Origin: Escherichia coli
GTDB taxonomy: Bacteria > Pseudomonadota > Gammaproteobacteria > Enterobacterales > Enterobacteriaceae
Assembly (NCBI RefSeq): GCF_024298765.1
Contig: NZ_CP101210.1
Reading direction: 5' to 3' (one strand)
DNA length: 64,000 bases
Under the pieces are notes generated by a model. It searched no databases and was not told the origin of the DNA. It worked only from the letters and a program-made list of their open reading frames with translations. This document shows, one piece after another, positions 3,498 through 49,639 of the stretch. Position 1 is the stretch's first letter. Each line of letters begins with the position of its first letter. Position numbers and translations under genes: made by a program.

Positions 3498-4319
3498 TTA
3501 TTTTTGCGACAGTTGATCCAGCTTGTCGCGAAAACCAGTAACAGAAATGGCCCGGTTATCGGCGCGCCAGCGATCTTTCGCGGCAGGAGCCGAACTTTGC
3601 ACCCCAATTAATTGCCAGCCGTCATCGGTATGCAACATCAGAGGCGAACCGCTGTCACCCGGCAAGGTATCGCACTGATGCGACATCACCGACGTTTGCG
3701 CCCAGCCAGTCACTTCACAGTTTTGATGACTGTACAACGTATCGAGATGATCTTCAGGGTATCCCGCCTGAGTCACTTTACGACCTGCCGCTTTTAATGC
3801 GGCGGTAAGCGTGGCTTTATCTCCCTCAAATAACGGCAATGGTGTAATGCCAGAAGGGGGATTACGTAGCACAATCAAACCGAAGTCCCACGGCGCAGCT
3901 GCGGGAGGAACAATCCAACCATCCCCATCTGCTTTTAACCGCTTTCCCAGTGTCGGATCAACGCGGCCTTCTATGTCGTGGATCTCATAGCGCCAAAGAC
4001 CTTTATTTGACACGAAACGCAGCGCTACCGCTTTATCGGCTTTACCCTTTGGCGGCGTCAATAAACAGTGTCCTGCCGTTAATGCCAGATTGGGTGCAAT
4101 CAGCGTCGCTGTACATAAATTGCCGCTGGCCGTTTCCAGTTGGCCAACCGCATCCCACGGTGATTGGGTCGTGTCATTCACTGGCACACGATCATCATGA
4201 CCAAAAAACAGGGTGCTGACCTCATCGTTTGCCGATTTGGCAACGTCTGGTTTATCTGCAAACACAAAAGCAGACGTCAAACTAATTGCACCCAACACTA
4301 CAGCAATGGTTCTACGCAT
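3498..4319 (-). CDS. ydgD: secreted trypsin-like serine peptidase
   Basis: 273 aa. Signal peptide [21 protein letters not shown]. His motif TAGHC and Ser motif GDSGSP. Confidence 0.9.
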
Positions 4320-4418
4320 ATCACACTCTGGTGGGTAATTATGATTATTAAAAGCAAACCCTCATAAATACTATAGACGGGACGGGATGAAAGTGGGAGT
4401 AAAATCAGATAACTACGA

Positions 4419-4502
4419 TCAGGAAAGATAAAAACGGGCGGCAATCAGTGCGCATAAAATAAGGATGATAAGAATGAACTCAAAGCGATAACGGCCCACC
4501 AT
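4419..4502 (-). CDS. ydgU: 27-aa small membrane protein
   Basis: Below the track cutoff. ATG 4502 gives MVGRYRFEFILIILILCALIAARFYLS then stop. Lies between ydgD and asr, as K-12 ydgU does. Confidence 0.7.
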   Translation of the reverse strand: MVGRYRFEFILIILILCALIAARFYLS

Positions 4503-4594
4503 ACTACCCTCCGCTAAAGGCGGTGCTAAACGTTACCCGTTTAGCACCGTAATTTTCAGGCGCGAGGGGGCGCGCCAGCATTACTGTTGAAAAC

Positions 4595-4903
4595 TTACGC
4601 TGCGGGTTGTGCAGCAGGTTTTGCCGGTTGCTGATGGCTGTGTTTCTTGGCGTGTTTCTTCGCTGCCTGCGCTTTTTGTTCAGGAGCTTTCTGTTCAGCT
4701 TTGGCATTTTTATGATGCTTTTTAGCCGCCTGCGCTTTCTGGGCAGGTGCTGCTTTATGCTGTTTTTTATGATGTGTGGTTTTCGCAGGCGCTGCTTTGG
4801 TGGTCGTCGCAGTCGGAGCAGGTGTGGTCGCAGTCTCTGCAGCAAAGGCAGCAGAAGACAGACCCATAGCAGCGGCAACAACCAGAGCTAATACTTTTTT
4901 CAT
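4595..4903 (-). CDS. asr: acid shock protein
   Basis: Start taken at [21 protein letters not shown] (Met10 of the track ORF), giving 102 aa. Signal peptide followed by a Lys/Ala/His/Gln-rich repeat. Confidence 0.9.
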
Positions 4904-5327
4904 TGTCATACCCTCAATTTGTTTTTTCATTTAACCCCACTGCGGGGCCGTTGAAATAACTATATCCCTGGGAATGGCAGACTTCCGTGAGTGGTTGGTT
5001 TCAGCGTGTAACGATATGTACAAACGCTGAATAAATTACAGCGTTGATAATAACGTATTGTGACTTAAGGAAAATTCATCTACCAATAATAGTAGTCTTG
5101 ATCGTGTTAACTATTTTACTACTTACAAAGCGGTAGAATAACTGCGCATCAGTAATAAATGACACACAGCAAAATGAATCCGTTTATTTGGGTACTTATA
5201 ATCCTGATGACACTAGATGCGCTGCGGGAATTGGCTGGCGCTTCGTCTATTTTAGGATGGCTATTAACGTTGGTTTGAGCAGGCAATAAGTCCGGACGGG
5301 TATTTACCTCAGTCCGGACTTATTTTT

Positions 5328-32129: not shown

Positions 32130-32190
32130 TGTTAGATATTTTAGACGTTACTAGATTAAAAAGCATTAGTTCAGGAGTGAATTGACATTC

Positions 32191-32433
32191 TCATTTTTCA
32201 TGGCACAGGGTAGATCTGGCGTGGTTGTCCGCTTTGTGCCAACAGCGGACGTTACTAACGAAACTGTGAGTTAAAAACGGGAGCTGGTCACCTCCATCCC
32301 GCGAAATGGAATTCAAAAATGCCCTCATGTACGGTACTTCTAGTCTGATGTGAGCATTTTCGTGGATTTTTTCGAGCCACTCCAACGAATGATTACATTC
32401 AGTTTCGGGCACTAAAACGTCATAAATCCGCAA
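32191..32433 (-). other. doubtful 80-codon ORF, probable gene remnant
   Basis: Only a TTG start right after an in-frame stop, with no RBS. No ORF continues upstream in any frame. Confidence 0.25.
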
Positions 32434-32662
32434 GTTGAGGAGTAGCGATCAGCCAATTGGTTAAAAAACAGCTTTAATTCCCTTTTTCAAGCAGGCTCCT
32501 TGTCGCACGTCTGGTGCATCCAATTCATTTCAGTTACCCTGATGCCATACTGGCACGGACTAGCTCTCTTAATTGGCGCTGGTTTGTTAACCTTGTCCGC
32601 TGTCGGGTCTTTGTAAGTTGTAATTCCTAAACTAGCATAATTTTATTATAAGGCCTCTTACT

Positions 32663-33688
32663 ATGCACATTTTATCTGTTTCAAAAAAGGAAGTTGGAAG
32701 AGCTGGGGATAGATTAGTTTCTCAGTTTGGTACAGGTGAAAAATATAAAGAGGAAGATGTACAAATTCTTCATGAGTGGAGGATGTTGCATTTATATCCT
32801 TTAAGTAAAATACAATTTTATATGGAAAGAGAGGCTATTTCCTTAAACAAAAATGCGTTACTATCCTCTAGAATTAAGAGGATGCCTTCCATTGTTACTA
32901 AGCTTTCTAGATTTCCTGATATGAAGTTAAATAAGATGCAGGATCTTGGTGGGTGCCGGGCTATTTTAAATAATCTGGATCAAGTGTATGATTTAGTTAA
33001 TAAAATAAAATCATCTAAATTCTCACATGAACTAGTTAGAATGGATGATTACATGATAGACGTGAAAGATTCTGGTTATAGAAGCTTTCATATGGTCTAT
33101 TCATTCCAAAATAAAAAATTTCCATCTTTAAATGGGTTGCGCATTGAAATGCAAATAAGAACAGCTATTCAACATAGCTGGGCTACAGCAGTTGAAATGG
33201 TTGGTTTGTTTCGAAAGGAATCATTGAAATCTGGTTTTGGTGATGCAAGATGGCTTAGGTTTTTTGAATTGGTATCAGAGCTTTTTTATAAACTTGAGTA
33301 TGAAAAAGAACCATCTGGGAGTTATATAAAAATATCAGAAGAATTAAGTTATTTATCCGTCGAGTTGAATGTTTTCGATATATTAGCTGCTTACAATGCC
33401 GTAGTTAGCCATATTGAGGGTAGCAAAAAATATGATAAAGGACTTTGCATAATTGTTGTTGATACCATAAAGCGGAATATAAATATAAAGAGCTTCGAAA
33501 ATCACAATCATGCGAAGGCGGCAGAAGCTTATGTCGAGTCTGAAAAATACTGCGCGGAAAATAAAGGCTGTGAAGTGGCTATGGTTTCTGTTAGTTCAAT
33601 TAGTGAATTAAAAAATGCATATCCTGCTTACTTTTTAGATACGAAAACTTTTTTAAATTATCTCAGTAGGTATGTTTTTATAAAATAA
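32663..33688 (+). CDS. RelA/SpoT-like small alarmone synthetase protein with C-terminal extension; candidate fused toxSAS (CapRel-type) toxin-antitoxin / anti-phage defence
   Basis: RSH synthetase blocks in canonical order: R70-IKRMPSIVTK80, D94-LGGCR99, G138-YRSFH143, E162-MQIRTAIQHSWA174. No HD hydrolase, TGS or ACT domains. About 140 aa of C-terminal extension with Y320-PA-Y323 near the end. Strongly AT-rich relative to its flanks. Confidence 0.8.
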   Translation: MHILSVSKKEVGRAGDRLVSQFGTGEKYKEEDVQILHEWRMLHLYPLSKIQFYMEREAISLNKNALLSSRIKRMPSIVTKLSRFPDMKLNKMQDLGGCRAILNNLDQVYDLVNKIKSSKFSHELVRMDDYMIDVKDSGYRSFHMVYSFQNKKFPSLNGLRIEMQIRTAIQHSWATAVEMVGLFRKESLKSGFGDARWLRFFELVSELFYKLEYEKEPSGSYIKISEELSYLSVELNVFDILAAYNAVVSHIEGSKKYDKGLCIIVVDTIKRNINIKSFENHNHAKAAEAYVESEKYCAENKGCEVAMVSVSSISELKNAYPAYFLDTKTFLNYLSRYVFIK

Positions 33689-34121
33689 AAAATGTTATCT
33701 GGAGTGGTCTGAATTCTACTAACTTAGTTTTTTCAGACCGCTTCTGACCACAATGGCCTGTGAGGTTCTGCTGCTAGTCAACATAAAATAACAAAGCCGG
33801 CAGGTGGTGGTTGTTGTAAAGTTATTCAATGACATTCATGGAGGCTTAAGCGAATTATTTGTCCCTGGTCGGTATGGTGGCAACAGCTTGTTGCGAGAAT
33901 TTGGCTAATTTGGACTGACTTCCGCTCCTTGCTCAAAGCGGACTAGAAGGTTAGCTTGTGTCGGACTTTGCGTATTAAAAGAAGTGCTGGTGGTGACTAG
34001 TGGTTGAGCCCCATTTCCACAGAAAAAATCAGAGAAACTATACCCAATAGTTGTATTGAATCACTGACGAGACAGCCTCATATTCATCAGGACTGGTGTA
34101 CGTCCAATACAGGAGGTTGTG

Positions 34122-34211
34122 GTGCTGGTTCTCAAATGTGCGCTGGCTATTACGGCTGTAATGGCGATTTATTGTCTTGCTATTGTTCTTATGGATCGCC
34201 TTTCTGACTGA
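34122..34211 (+). CDS. candidate 29-aa hydrophobic peptide (type-I-toxin-like)
   Basis: AGGAGG (34111-16), 5 nt, GTG 34122 gives M-LVLKCALAITAVMAIYCLAIVLMDRLSD. The SD can pair with ACAGCCTC (34072-79). Overlaps the Cys/Gly-rich track ORF in another frame. Confidence 0.4.
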   Translation: MLVLKCALAITAVMAIYCLAIVLMDRLSD

Positions 34212-34422
34212 TTTCATATTGGCGAGGTAAAGGTAGTTAAGTAGAATGGCTGCGGGTGCTTGAGGCTATCTGCCTCGGGCATGAACACCAAAGGCAGATA
34301 GAGAAAAGCCCCAGTTAACATTACGCGTCCTGCAAGACGCTTAACATTAATCTGAGGCCAATTTCATGCTAGACACATGTAGGTTAGCCTCTTACGTGCC
34401 GGAAGGCAAGGAGAAGCAGGCT

Positions 34423-34578
34423 ATGAAGCAGCAAAAGGCGATGTTAATCGCCCTGATCGTCATCTGTTTAACCGTCATAGTGACGGCACTGGTAACGAGG
34501 AAAGACCTCTGCGAGGTACGAATCCGAACCGGCCAGACGGAGGTCGCTGTCTTCACAGCTTACGAACCTGAGGAGTAA
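34423..34578 (+). CDS. hokD: Hok-family membrane toxin (RelF)
   Basis: MKQQKAMLIALIVICLTVIVTALVTRKDLCEVRIRTGQTEVAVFTAYEPEE (51 aa) with RBS AAGGAG. The track ORF start at 34366 is an in-frame upstream extension. Confidence 0.9.
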   Translation: MKQQKAMLIALIVICLTVIVTALVTRKDLCEVRIRTGQTEVAVFTAYEPEE

Positions 34579-46159: not shown

Positions 46160-47667
46160 TGGCAATTCTTGATGATGTGATTGGCGTTTTTTCACCAGGA
46201 TGGAAAGCGGCAAGGCTGCGTTCCCGAGCGGTGATCCAGGCTTATGAGGCCGTAAAAACGACGCGGACACACAAAGCCCGACGGGAGAACCGAACTGCCG
46301 ACCAGTTAAGCCAGTACGGGGCCGTGTCGTTACGTGAGCAGGCCCGTTACCTTGATAACAACCACGATCTGGTCATTGGTGTATTTGACAAGCTGGAAGA
46401 ACGGGTGGTGGGGAAAAACGGGATTATTGTCGAGCCACATCCGGTATTACGCAATGGTGCCATTGCCCGTGACTTGGCAGCGGAGATACGTACCCGATGG
46501 AGTGAATGGTCTGTCAGTCCGGAAGTCACCGGGCAGTTTACCCGTCCGATGCTGGAACGTCTGATGCTGCGTACCTGGCTGCGCGATGGTGAGGTGTTTG
46601 CCCAGATGGTTTCCGGGCGCATAAACAGCCTGACGCCTTCTGCCGGTGTTCATTTCTGGCTGGAGGCGCTCGAGCCGGACTTTATTCCCATGACCAGTGA
46701 TGAGAGCAACAGGCTGAATCAGGGCGTGTTTGTTGATGACTGGGGGCGTCCCGAAAAATATCTGGTGTATAAAAGTCGTCCTGTATCCGGACGGCAGATG
46801 GAAACCAAAGAAGTGGATGCAGAGCGAATGCTGCATCTTAAATTTGTTCGCCGTCTGCACCAGATGCGCGGGACGTCTTTATTGTCCGGTGTGCTGATCC
46901 GCCTCAGCGCCCTGAAAGAGTATGAAGATTCTGAGCTGACTGCAGCAAGGATCGCCGCTGCTCTGGGGATGTACATCCGGAAAGGCGACGGACAGAGCTA
47001 TGAAACGGATGGTAATGACAGCAAGGAGAATGAACGCGAGCTTACCATTCAGCCAGGCATTATTTACGACGATCTGAAACCCGGCGAAGAAATCGGAATG
47101 GTGAAGTCGGATCGTCCCAATCCTAACCTTGAAACTTTTCGTAATGGTCAGTTGCGTGCCGTGGCGGCGGGCAGTCGTCTGAGTTTTTCCAGTACGGCAC
47201 GCAACTATAACGGCACTTACAGCGCCCAGCGTCAGGAACTGGTTGAGTCTACTGATGGCTACCTGATCCTGCAGGACTGGTTTATTGGTGCCGTCACCCG
47301 CCCGATGTATCGTGCATGGCTGAAACAGGCTGTGGCATCCGGTGTTATCAGGCTACCCCGCGATCTTGACCGTTCTTCACTGTATACCGCGGTGTATTCC
47401 GGACCAGTGATGCCGTGGATTGACCCTGTTAAGGAGGCTGAGGCCTGGAAAATCCAGATTCGTGGTGGAGCGGCGACAGAATCAGACTGGGTACGTGCTG
47501 GTGGTCGTAATCCGGATGATGTCAAACGTCGGCGCAAGGCCGAAATTGATGAAAACCGCAAGCTGGATCTGGTATTTGATACCGATCCGGCCAGTGATAA
47601 AGGAGGCAGCAGTGCCGCAACGAAACGACAGGAGCCGCAGCACACCGACGACCAGTCCGAAGAATAA
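46159..47667 (+). CDS. portal protein (lambda B family)
   Basis: Start at MAILDDVIGVFSPGWKAARLR (ATG 46159, overlapping the gpW TGA), giving 502 aa. Confidence 0.88.
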   Translation: MAILDDVIGVFSPGWKAARLRSRAVIQAYEAVKTTRTHKARRENRTADQLSQYGAVSLREQARYLDNNHDLVIGVFDKLEERVVGKNGIIVEPHPVLRNGAIARDLAAEIRTRWSEWSVSPEVTGQFTRPMLERLMLRTWLRDGEVFAQMVSGRINSLTPSAGVHFWLEALEPDFIPMTSDESNRLNQGVFVDDWGRPEKYLVYKSRPVSGRQMETKEVDAERMLHLKFVRRLHQMRGTSLLSGVLIRLSALKEYEDSELTAARIAAALGMYIRKGDGQSYETDGNDSKENERELTIQPGIIYDDLKPGEEIGMVKSDRPNPNLETFRNGQLRAVAAGSRLSFSSTARNYNGTYSAQRQELVESTDGYLILQDWFIGAVTRPMYRAWLKQAVASGVIRLPRDLDRSSLYTAVYSGPVMPWIDPVKEAEAWKIQIRGGAATESDWVRAGGRNPDDVKRRRKAEIDENRKLDLVFDTDPASDKGGSSAATKRQEPQHTDDQSEE

Positions 47668-49639
47668 TTCCTGGTTCAGGATGCAGGCTGGTCACCAGAG
47701 TGACGCGGATATTTATATTTATGACGAGATTGGTTTCTGGGGTGTTACAGCGAAGCAGTTTATCAGTGATCTGAATGCACTGGGCGATATCACCCACATT
47801 AATCTCCATATTAATTCACCGGGTGGCGATGTCTTTGAAGGCATCGCCATTTTTAATGCGCTGAAAACACATGGAGCGTCCATTACCGTTTATGTCGACG
47901 GTGTGGCGGCGTCAATGGCGTCGGTCATTGCGATGGTGGGAAACCCGGTCATTATGCCGGAAAACACTTTCATGATGATTCATAAACCATTTGGCTTTAC
48001 GGGCGGTGATGCGGAGGACATGCGCACCTATGCCGACCTGCTCGATAAAGTTGAGGCGGTTCTGTTACCCGCTTATGCACAGAAAACCGGGAAAACCACC
48101 GATGAAATTGCTGCCATGCTGGCGGATGAGACCTGGATGTCCGGTGCCGAATGTCTGGCACATGGATTTGCTGATCAGGTAACGCCAGCCGTTAAGGCAA
48201 TGGCATGTATTCAGTCAAAACGTACAGAGGAATTTAAAAAGATGCCGGAATCCATTCGAAACATGATTACTCCGCCACGCAACAGTGCTCCACGCGTACA
48301 GGATGATGAACCTGCAGCCTCCCGGACGCCAGTGCAGGCAGCAGCACCCGTGGTGGATGAAAACAGTATCCGTGCGCAGGTACTGGCAGAGCAAAAAGCG
48401 CGTGTAAACGGTATTAATGATCTGTTTGCCATGTTTGGCGGGCGTTATCAGACGCTGCAGGCTCAGTGTCTTGCCGATCCTGAATGTTCGCTGGAGCAGG
48501 CCCGCGAAAAGCTGTTGAACGAGATGGGGCGCGAGTCCACGCCATCCAATAAAAATACCCCGGCTCATATTTATGCCGGTAACGGTAATTTTGTGGGGGA
48601 CGGGATCCGCCAGGCGCTGATGGCGCGTGCCGGATTTGAAAAAACCGAACGTGATAATGTCTACAACGGGATGACCCTGCGTGAATATGCCCGTATGTCA
48701 CTGACTGAACGGGGTATTGGGGTTTCCAGTTATAACCCGATGCAGATGGTCGGTGCGGCGTTCACACACAGTACGTCTGACTTCGGTAATATTCTGCTGG
48801 ATGTTGCGAACAAAGCCATTCTGCAGGGCTGGGAAGATGCTCCTGAAACCTATGAACAGTGGACGCGGAAAGGTCAGTTGTCTGATTTTAAAATTGCCCA
48901 TCGTGTGGGTATGGGGGGCTTCAGTGCTCTGCGTCAGGTGCGTGAAGGGGCGGAATATAAATACGTCACCACCGGAGATAAACAGGCCACTATTGCACTG
49001 GCGACCTATGGCGAGCTGTTCAGTATCACCCGTCAGGCCATTATCAATGATGATCTGAATATGCTGACCGATGTCCCGATGAAGCTGGGCCGTGCGGCGA
49101 AATCCACCATTGCCGATCTGGTTTATGCCATTCTGACGTCTAACCCGAAAATCTCCACAGATAATGTAAGTCTGTTCGATAAAGCGAAACATGCAAACGT
49201 ACTGGAGAGCGCTGCAATGGACGTGGCATCGCTGGATAAAGCCCGCCAGTTGATGCGCGTTCAGAAAGAGGGGGAGCGTCATCTGAATATTCGTCCTGCG
49301 TTCGTACTGGTACCGACGGCGATGGAGTCTGTTGCTAACCAGGTCATTCGCTCCTCAAGTGTCAAGGGGGCTGACATTAACGCCGGTATTATTAACCCGG
49401 TGAAAGATTTTGCGACCGTTATTGCAGAGCCTCGTCTTGATGATAACAGCCAGACCACCTTCTACCTGGCTGCGTCCAAAGGCTCCGATACGATTGAAGT
49501 GGCTTATCTCAACGGTGTGGATACGCCATATATTGATCAGATGGAGGGCTTCAGTGTGGATGGCGTGACAACGAAAGTGCGTATTGACGCCGGTGTCGCG
49601 CCAGTTGATCACCGCGGTCTGGTGAAATGTACGGCGTAA
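47612..49639 (+). CDS. ClpP-like prohead protease fused to scaffold-like linker and major capsid protein
   Basis: AAGGAGG, 6 nt, GTG 47612 (inside the portal 3' end). N-terminal S14-type protease (IYIYDEIGFWG, INSPGGDVFEG, VDGVAASMASV, FMMIHKP). Ala/Pro/Gln-rich linker. C-terminal roughly 330 aa is capsid-like. 675 aa in total. Confidence 0.8.
   Translation: MPQRNDRSRSTPTTSPKNNSWFRMQAGHQSDADIYIYDEIGFWGVTAKQFISDLNALGDITHINLHINSPGGDVFEGIAIFNALKTHGASITVYVDGVAASMASVIAMVGNPVIMPENTFMMIHKPFGFTGGDAEDMRTYADLLDKVEAVLLPAYAQKTGKTTDEIAAMLADETWMSGAECLAHGFADQVTPAVKAMACIQSKRTEEFKKMPESIRNMITPPRNSAPRVQDDEPAASRTPVQAAAPVVDENSIRAQVLAEQKARVNGINDLFAMFGGRYQTLQAQCLADPECSLEQAREKLLNEMGRESTPSNKNTPAHIYAGNGNFVGDGIRQALMARAGFEKTERDNVYNGMTLREYARMSLTERGIGVSSYNPMQMVGAAFTHSTSDFGNILLDVANKAILQGWEDAPETYEQWTRKGQLSDFKIAHRVGMGGFSALRQVREGAEYKYVTTGDKQATIALATYGELFSITRQAIINDDLNMLTDVPMKLGRAAKSTIADLVYAILTSNPKISTDNVSLFDKAKHANVLESAAMDVASLDKARQLMRVQKEGERHLNIRPAFVLVPTAMESVANQVIRSSSVKGADINAGIINPVKDFATVIAEPRLDDNSQTTFYLAASKGSDTIEVAYLNGVDTPYIDQMEGFSVDGVTTKVRIDAGVAPVDHRGLVKCTA

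Follow-up and report, generated by a model that had tools for sequence, protein, structure and literature searches.

We identify a complete gene of the CapRel family in a lambdoid prophage of Escherichia coli, and propose that its product is probably a stand-alone phage-defence protein in which toxin and antitoxin are fused in one polypeptide. The gene lies at positions 32663–33688, on the plus strand, of a 64,000-nucleotide stretch of contig NZ_CP101210.1 (assembly GCF_024298765.1), hereafter the window. It runs from an ATG start to a TAA stop and encodes a protein of 341 amino acids (aa), RefSeq WP_000547812.1, hereafter the query. The identification is sound: the gene is a divergent member of the known CapRel family and not a new kind of system.

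An earlier reading of the window, made from its letters alone and hereafter the sequence-only reading, had called the gene a single-polypeptide, CapRel-type toxic small alarmone synthetase (toxSAS) and had expected ordinary annotation to miss it. The second expectation is half right. The RefSeq product name is indeed generic, stating only "RelA/SpoT domain-containing protein", but PADLOC already lists the family as the candidate system PDC-S33, whose model matches the protein over its full length (E=5e-119). A full-text literature search for PDC-S33 or WP_000547812 found no paper.

Family membership and fold

The query carries a RelA/SpoT-type catalytic core as its sole recognisable Pfam domain. 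Pfam RelA_SpoT (PF04607) matches residues 69–175 (E=4e-18; 66.2 bits, cutoff 27), and is the only Pfam match at E<=1; HD, TGS and ACT domains, which the sequence-only reading had reported absent, were not found. The signature blocks of the synthetase fold also stand where that reading placed them, at R70–K80 (nucleotides 32870–32902), D94–R99 (32942–32959), G138–H143 (33074–33091) and E162–A174 (33146–33184).

Beyond this core, similarity extends to one characterised protein along its whole length. In a sequence search of solved structures with phmmer, the top match was CapRel SJ46 (7ZTB and 9ERV, the latter in complex with Bas11 Gp54), aligned over residues 6–338 of the query and 15–370 of SJ46 (E=2.6e-34); long RelA aligned over residues 33–174 only (E=0.012). 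Structure comparison gave the same answer. We predicted the fold with AlphaFold2 (predicted local distance difference test, pLDDT, 89.1; predicted template modelling score, pTM, 0.86) and searched the model with Foldseek. The top matches were again 9ERV and 7ZTB, with E values of ~1e-20 to 1e-21 and template modelling (TM) scores of 0.68–0.69 over ~353 columns. CapRel SJ46 was the sole full-length structural match, whereas RelP, RelQ, Rel and RelA cover only the ~185-residue synthetase core. SJ46 is therefore the nearest characterised relative by both sequence and fold, including the C-terminal ~140 aa, as the CapRel-type assignment had implied.

Profile searches place the two proteins in the same families. 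PHROG 4773, like PDC-S33, matches the query over its full length (E=5e-134), and when the SJ46 sequence was scanned in the same way both models again matched from end to end (PDC-S33, 8e-86; PHROG 4773, 7e-141). Since SJ46 and the query are both full-length members, PDC-S33 and PHROG 4773 each represent the fused-CapRel family. A search of a phage collection returned a single full-length match, the SJ46 CapRel gene itself; gp29 of phage Phrann (PhRel) covers the toxin part only. Among NCBIfam models, the only match was a YjbM-like one below threshold.

Domain layout

The model and alignments divide the query into the segments described for SJ46, all read from the plus strand. An N-terminal helical bundle (aa 1–63; 32663–32851) comprises helices 8–24, 30–41 and 44–61, modelled at pLDDT 90–97. 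It aligns with SJ46 residues 15–72, and its W39 and R40 are invariant in the alignment of homologues introduced below. The toxSYNTH core, a RelA/SpoT nucleotidyl/pyrophosphotransferase domain, follows at aa 69–175 (32867–33187) and contains R70, R99 and the G-loop tyrosine Y139. Next come linker or "anchor" helices (aa ~191–250; 33233–33412), modelled at 195–213, 221–234 and 237–249; these correspond to alpha7–alpha9 of SJ46, which connect toxSYNTH to the pseudo-zinc-finger domain (PMC9712102).

The pseudo-zinc-finger domain (pZFD) of the query spans aa ~251–312 (33413–33598), with strands 260–267 and 272–279, helix 283–299 and strand 303–310. This beta-beta-alpha-beta topology gives an antiparallel sheet of three strands, the last two of which are joined by a helix, as published for SJ46, in which a three-stranded sheet has its helix between beta7 and beta8 and continues into a C-terminal helical extension (PMC9712102). 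Residues 251–312 contain three scattered cysteines (C263, C297 and C303) and no CxxC pair. We presume that this domain offers the phage-sensing surface.

The chain ends in C-terminal helices (33599–33685) that carry the motif A319-Y320-P321-A322-Y323-F324 (33617–33634), aligned to A351-Y352-P-N-Y355-F of SJ46. In the model the YPAY sequence forms a hinge, a short helical turn (321–324) between helices 313–319 and 328–338.

Conservation of catalytic and autoinhibitory residues

The residues on which SJ46 depends offer a finer comparison. We mapped the query onto SJ46 by alignment in 7ZTB numbering, using the residues tested by Zhang et al. 2022 (PMC9712102), and assessed conservation in an alignment of 42 homologues reaching down to 34% identity. 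In SJ46, R79 and R116 coordinate ATP, and Y155 lies in the G-loop, where the Y155A change abolishes defence (PMC9712102). All three are retained, as R70, R99 and Y139, respectively. They belong to a larger set of positions at which all 42 sequences agree: R70, R73, K80, D94, G97, R99, G138, Y139, H143, E162, Q164, R166, Q170, H171 and W173.

The autoinhibitory element is retained as well. SJ46 becomes constitutively toxic with Y352A, Y355A or A351K (PMC9712102). The Y320-P-A-Y323 motif to which the sequence-only reading drew attention does end 18 residues from the C-terminus, and it aligns exactly with the validated Y352/Y355 pair, such that A351, Y352 and Y355 of SJ46 correspond to A319, Y320 and Y323 of the query. 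Across the family, P321 is invariant (42/42), A319 and Y320 are each found in 41 of 42 sequences, F324 in 40, and Y323 in 37, with phenylalanine in the other five.

Conservation is unevenly spread along the chain. Entropy by region is lowest in the catalytic core (1.36) and the YxxY helices (1.52), higher in the anchor helices (2.13) and highest in the pZFD (2.32). Identity to distant members tells the same story, at 22% in the pZFD versus 52% in the core. A variable pZFD set between a conserved core and conserved YxxY helices is the pattern reported for CapRels.

A single-gene system

A fused toxin and antitoxin should need no partner, and the sequence-only reading had found no antitoxin beside the gene. 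The broader comparison bears this out. In RefSeq, the upstream gap of 533 bp and the downstream gap of ~730 bp are both free of annotated genes. Eight small flanking open reading frames (ORFs) scanned against Pfam and PHROGs gave no significant match. With a permissive threshold, Rfam yielded the hokD-associated sok RNA (34254–34428; 117 bits) and nothing else. When the cargo cassette containing the gene was compared by blastn with 16 homologue and variant loci, similarity was confined to 32662–33683, that is, to the ORF.

Homologues at 45–86% identity occupy six unrelated contexts that have no neighbour and no flanking DNA in common, with conservation stopping at the ends of the ORF. A 65%-identical E. 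coli variant (gene at 4001–5017 of loci L005–L008) resides in a different lambdoid prophage, between the Q antiterminator and holin genes and in the orientation opposite to the late genes. The Serratia homologue adjoins HxsD/radical-SAM genes and three DCD-family genes, whereas that of Vibrio is a single cassette within an array of co-oriented small genes. In Pectobacterium versatile the homologue adjoins AbiEii on an integrase-carrying island, and two metagenomic contigs supply the remaining contexts. The Serratia, Vibrio and Pectobacterium settings have the character of defence islands. The gene has 32–38% GC in every host. Because these homologues share only the ORF, we conclude that there is no partner antitoxin gene.

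This comparison bears directly on an alternative in which the gene is the toxin of a two-component system, neutralised by a small protein or RNA encoded in the ~410 bp of upstream or ~240 bp of downstream cassette DNA. The intergenic gaps are unusually long, the upstream DNA holds ORFs of 80 aa (32191–32433, minus strand) and 38 aa (32500–32616), and in E. coli the gene and its non-coding flanks go together: neither flank was found apart from the gene, the two occurring in 40 and 42 of 5426 complete genomes with identities of 99% or more. Such co-occurrence is not independent evidence of conservation, however, because the E. coli copies represent a single cassette at >=99% identity. Against a separate antitoxin stand the lack of any common neighbour or flanking DNA in the six contexts, the failure of the small ORFs and Rfam searches to yield a candidate other than sok, and the presence in cis of an antitoxin-like C-terminal domain with its YxxY motif. 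We accordingly rejected a separate antitoxin or small RNA, and rank the two-component arrangement as the least probable of the alternatives considered here.

The 38-aa ORF, which is hydrophobic, begins with TTG and lies on the plus strand in the upstream non-coding DNA, shows a sub-threshold resemblance to Ldr_toxin (E=0.032; 14.7 bits, cutoff 27). This is probably a chance resemblance, and the ORF is not conserved beside any homologue. We also considered whether the toxin occurs naturally in free form, as entry P0016, a 214-aa "partial" with 252 member sequences, might suggest; it was rejected on finding that it is a C-terminal fragment covering residues 128–341.

The fusion of toxin and antitoxin makes a classical plasmid-addiction role unlikely, because parts of a single chain share the same stability.

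Proposed mechanism and substrate

In SJ46, the N-terminal domain is toxic alone, the C-terminal domain neutralises it, and the full-length protein is non-toxic. The query would work in the same manner. In an uninfected lysogen, its C-terminal domain would fold back and place the YPAY turn between R70 and R99, blocking the ATP (pyrophosphate-donor) site. Upon infection, a phage protein, possibly with a host factor, would bind the variable pZFD and anchor helices and hold the protein open. The open enzyme would then move pyrophosphate from ATP to the 3'-CCA ends of tRNAs, and this modification would stop translation and abort the infection.

Could the query synthesise a toxic alarmone, either (pp)pApp, depleting ATP, or (p)ppGpp, instead of modifying tRNA? 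The catalytic fold is common to alarmone synthetases and tRNA pyrophosphotransferases, the structural matches beyond CapRel are to RelP and RelQ, and the sub-threshold NCBIfam match is YjbM-like. The closest characterised relative, by contrast, pyrophosphorylates tRNA in vitro. The mode of neutralisation points the same way. Dominguez-Molina et al. found that donor-site neutralisation by a YXXY-bearing pZFD goes with tRNA-pyrophosphorylating toxSAS, and that the (pp)pApp makers FaRel and Tas1 have Tis1-like neutralisers and a pZFD-like domain that has lost YXXY (PMC11782079). The query keeps AYPAYF within a YXXY-bearing pZFD in cis, and no Tis1-like partner is found nearby. We therefore consider a fused alarmone-producing CapRel improbable and favour tRNA pyrophosphorylation, as qualified below.

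Trigger

Known CapRel triggers are diverse: besides a major capsid protein, they include Bas11 Gp54, which is a small protein, and the complex of T7 Gp0.4 with host FtsZ (PMC9712102, PMC11578894, PMC13423816). T7 Gp0.4 with FtsZ triggers the CapRel Ebc, the Bas8 capsid protein triggers EcHT, and the C-terminal region sets phage specificity. The sequence-only reading had pointed to activation by a phage capsid protein, and this trigger cannot be carried over to the query. Besides the variety of triggers, L280 and L307, which belong to the capsid-binding surface of SJ46 (PMC9712102), fall in indels and have no counterpart in the query, whose pZFD is shorter. With 28–32% identity to SJ46, a clade without tested CapRels and a shorter sensor domain, the trigger need not be a capsid protein, and both trigger and phage range probably differ from those of SJ46.

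We can speculate further that the Enterobacterales clade with its compact pZFD senses a new class of trigger, such as a phage protein other than the capsid, a complex of phage and host proteins, or something made by competing lambdoid phages. We put this forward tentatively, as an idea with a minority chance of being right, and the evidence does not specifically support it. Were it true, the clade would have to tolerate the resident prophage's own protease–capsid fusion, and the cargo interval described below would be a natural swap site for translation-targeting toxin–antitoxin (TA) and defence modules (relBE, CapRel, SIR2 and DUF4209).

The resident capsid gene (window ~47612–49639, plus strand) is annotated as a fusion of a ClpP-like prohead protease and the major capsid protein. 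Capsid proteins of the HK97 fold activate some CapRels, which bears on how the CapRel would respond to this fusion when the prophage is induced.

Prophage setting and cargo slot

The gene sits in the accessory slot that the sequence-only reading had named, between the replication genes and Q of a Qin-type prophage, as annotation and strain comparison both confirm. Host chromosome, from pntB to rspB, makes up the first ~23.5 kb of the window. Beside rspB, at the Qin site, begins a lambdoid prophage with Qin-type early and lysis genes and with complete terminase, portal, protease–capsid and tail modules, covering packaging, head and tail. Within it, the gene lies between replication-region genes (YdaT, a hypothetical gene and DUF977) on one side and hokD-rem-ydfU-ydfT(Q) on the other.

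Comparison with other prophages defines a cargo cassette of ~1.7 kb (32251–33930), comprising the gene with ~410 bp of upstream and ~240 bp of downstream non-coding DNA. The backbone common to prophage versions bearing SIR2 and DUF4209 genes ends at 32192–32250 and resumes at 33931–34069. Base composition marks the gene out within this DNA: its GC content is 0.326, whereas the prophage and the host DNA of the window each stand at ~0.50, which agrees with its description as AT-rich in the sequence-only reading. Sliding-window values are 0.31–0.34 within the gene and 0.45–0.53 outside it, and the non-coding flanks of the cassette have 43% GC.

The interval between DUF977 and hokD (window 32130–34420) is a swap slot for cargo in Qin-type prophages, with the same flanking backbone and varied contents. 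In the Qin prophage of K-12 it holds relB-relE directly upstream of hokD, in an O55:H7 strain a SIR2-family gene, and in strain Esc31 a DUF4209 gene; QueH, alpha/beta hydrolase, DUF5677 or DUF7167 genes occupy it in other strains. RelBE of K-12 Qin is a positional analogue of the query, likewise a translation-targeting TA system in the slot upstream of hokD, but its proteins and mechanism are unrelated. RelE acts on mRNA as a ribosome-dependent endonuclease, and its labile antitoxin is a separate protein.

About 570 bp downstream of the gene there is a complete type I toxin–antitoxin element, hok/sok (sok, 34254–34428; hokD coding sequence, 34423–34578). It is adjacent and independent.

Distribution

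The gene is rare in E. coli. It was found in 41 of 5426 complete genomes, always chromosomal and at >=99% identity, and these copies are one recently spread cassette. Many of the carriers among those listed are poultry or avian isolates (chicken, turkey, and avian pathogenic E. coli), an impression drawn from the listed carriers and not from statistics; one carrier is the probiotic strain A0 34/86. In E. coli GPEC1258 (NZ_CM142782.1), IS903B is inserted ~50 bp upstream of the start codon, equivalent to window position ~32610, where it could alter expression.

Viewed more widely, the query's clade is one twig of a large known family. At E<=1e-30, an exhaustive search of 1.84 billion cluster representatives returned 1,248 clusters, formed at 50% identity; almost all of them matched from end to end, with lengths of ~340–370 aa, and the whole clade of the query collapses to one representative among them. 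In a neighbour-joining tree, the query falls in a tight Enterobacterales/Aeromonas clade that is sister to a Vibrio clade, while SJ46 occupies a separate long branch.

Relation to known systems

SJ46, found in Salmonella phage SJ46 and in E. coli prophages, is the closest known system. Like the query, it is prophage-carried and joins toxSYNTH, anchor helices, pseudo-ZFD and AYPxYF helices in one polypeptide of the same PADLOC and PHROG families. The two differ in length (341 aa in the query, 373 aa in SJ46), the query lacking an insertion of ~7 residues after the RxKxxxSxxxK block as well as part of the pZFD.

Experimental tests exist for four fused CapRels, SJ46, Ebc, Kp and EcHT, none of which belongs to the Enterobacterales clade of the query. 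Ebc, Kp and EcHT have the same architecture and presumed mechanism as the query. Ebc is 70% identical to SJ46, the available sequence fragment of EcHT resembles the SJ46/Ebc clade, and Kp is distant from the query (29–37% over fragments).

A further comparison is with the bicistronic toxSAS. FaRel2/ATfaRel2, PhRel/ATphRel of Phrann and the unfused actinobacterial CapRel have toxSYNTH toxins homologous to that of the query, are neutralised at the ATP donor site by the YXXY of a small pZFD-type element, and pyrophosphorylate tRNA CCA ends. Their antitoxin is encoded by a separate gene, whereas in the query it is fused and no neighbour is conserved.

Weighing the assignment

Several points weigh against reading the query as an active, autoinhibited defence protein. 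One is distance: identity to characterised proteins is low, at 28–32% to SJ46 and 28–38% over fragments of Kp and Ebc, the latter figures coming from fragment-level tblastn against optically recognised gBlock text with indel errors and not from full-length sequences. From homology we predict toxicity and its autoinhibition, abortive infection, and tRNA as the substrate. The preference for tRNA over an alarmone gains support from a correlation in the literature, with no diagnostic residue behind it. The AlphaFold2 model is consistent with a closed, autoinhibited state, which AlphaFold also predicts for SJ46, the basis being its ~10 Å root-mean-square deviation from the open crystal form at a TM score of 0.69.

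The domain interface also differs from that of SJ46. Its interface residues are A77, V338, L339, A341 and A351 (PMC9712102). Apart from the retained A351 (A319 in the query) and L339, conservatively replaced by M307, three positions whose alteration activates SJ46 are substituted, A77 by S68, V338 by A306 and A341 by S309. All three are family-typical alternatives in the 42-sequence alignment, yet the strength of autoinhibition could differ from that of SJ46. Finally, a consensus scan found no plus-strand sigma-70 promoter upstream of the gene, although the scan was uninformative, with five sites found against 6.9 expected from shuffled sequence.

The missing promoter consensus, the generic RefSeq name and the kinship of the prophage with cryptic Qin would also suit a gene that has decayed beyond function, or one for a housekeeping small alarmone synthetase with a part in the stringent response and no connection with phages. 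Decay fits poorly with an ORF kept whole in 40 complete genomes (>=99% identity), with catalytic and autoinhibitory residues that all show little or no variation in a family of >1,200 50%-identity clusters, and with a prophage that has complete packaging, head and tail modules. Nor is the gene as expected of a housekeeping function, given its rarity (41/5426 genomes), its low GC content everywhere (32–38%) and its constant location in mobile or island DNA. RelP and RelQ, moreover, align to the core only and lack the C-terminal domain. We regard both versions of this alternative as very improbable, and retain a fused CapRel-family defence protein as the preferred identification.

Implications

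CapRel belongs to the small number of bacterial immune proteins whose direct sensing of phage proteins, akin to recognition of a pathogen-associated molecular pattern, has been worked out. The query does not alter that understanding and would not surprise a specialist; its value is as a well-defined experimental candidate and as the correction of a generic annotation. Its location illustrates how a single slot of a lambdoid prophage cycles defence and TA cargo, with relBE in its place in K-12. As a natural E. coli allele with ~30% identity and a shorter sensor, it would offer a cheap test of how far autoinhibition and the tRNA target are conserved, and it could reveal new triggers.

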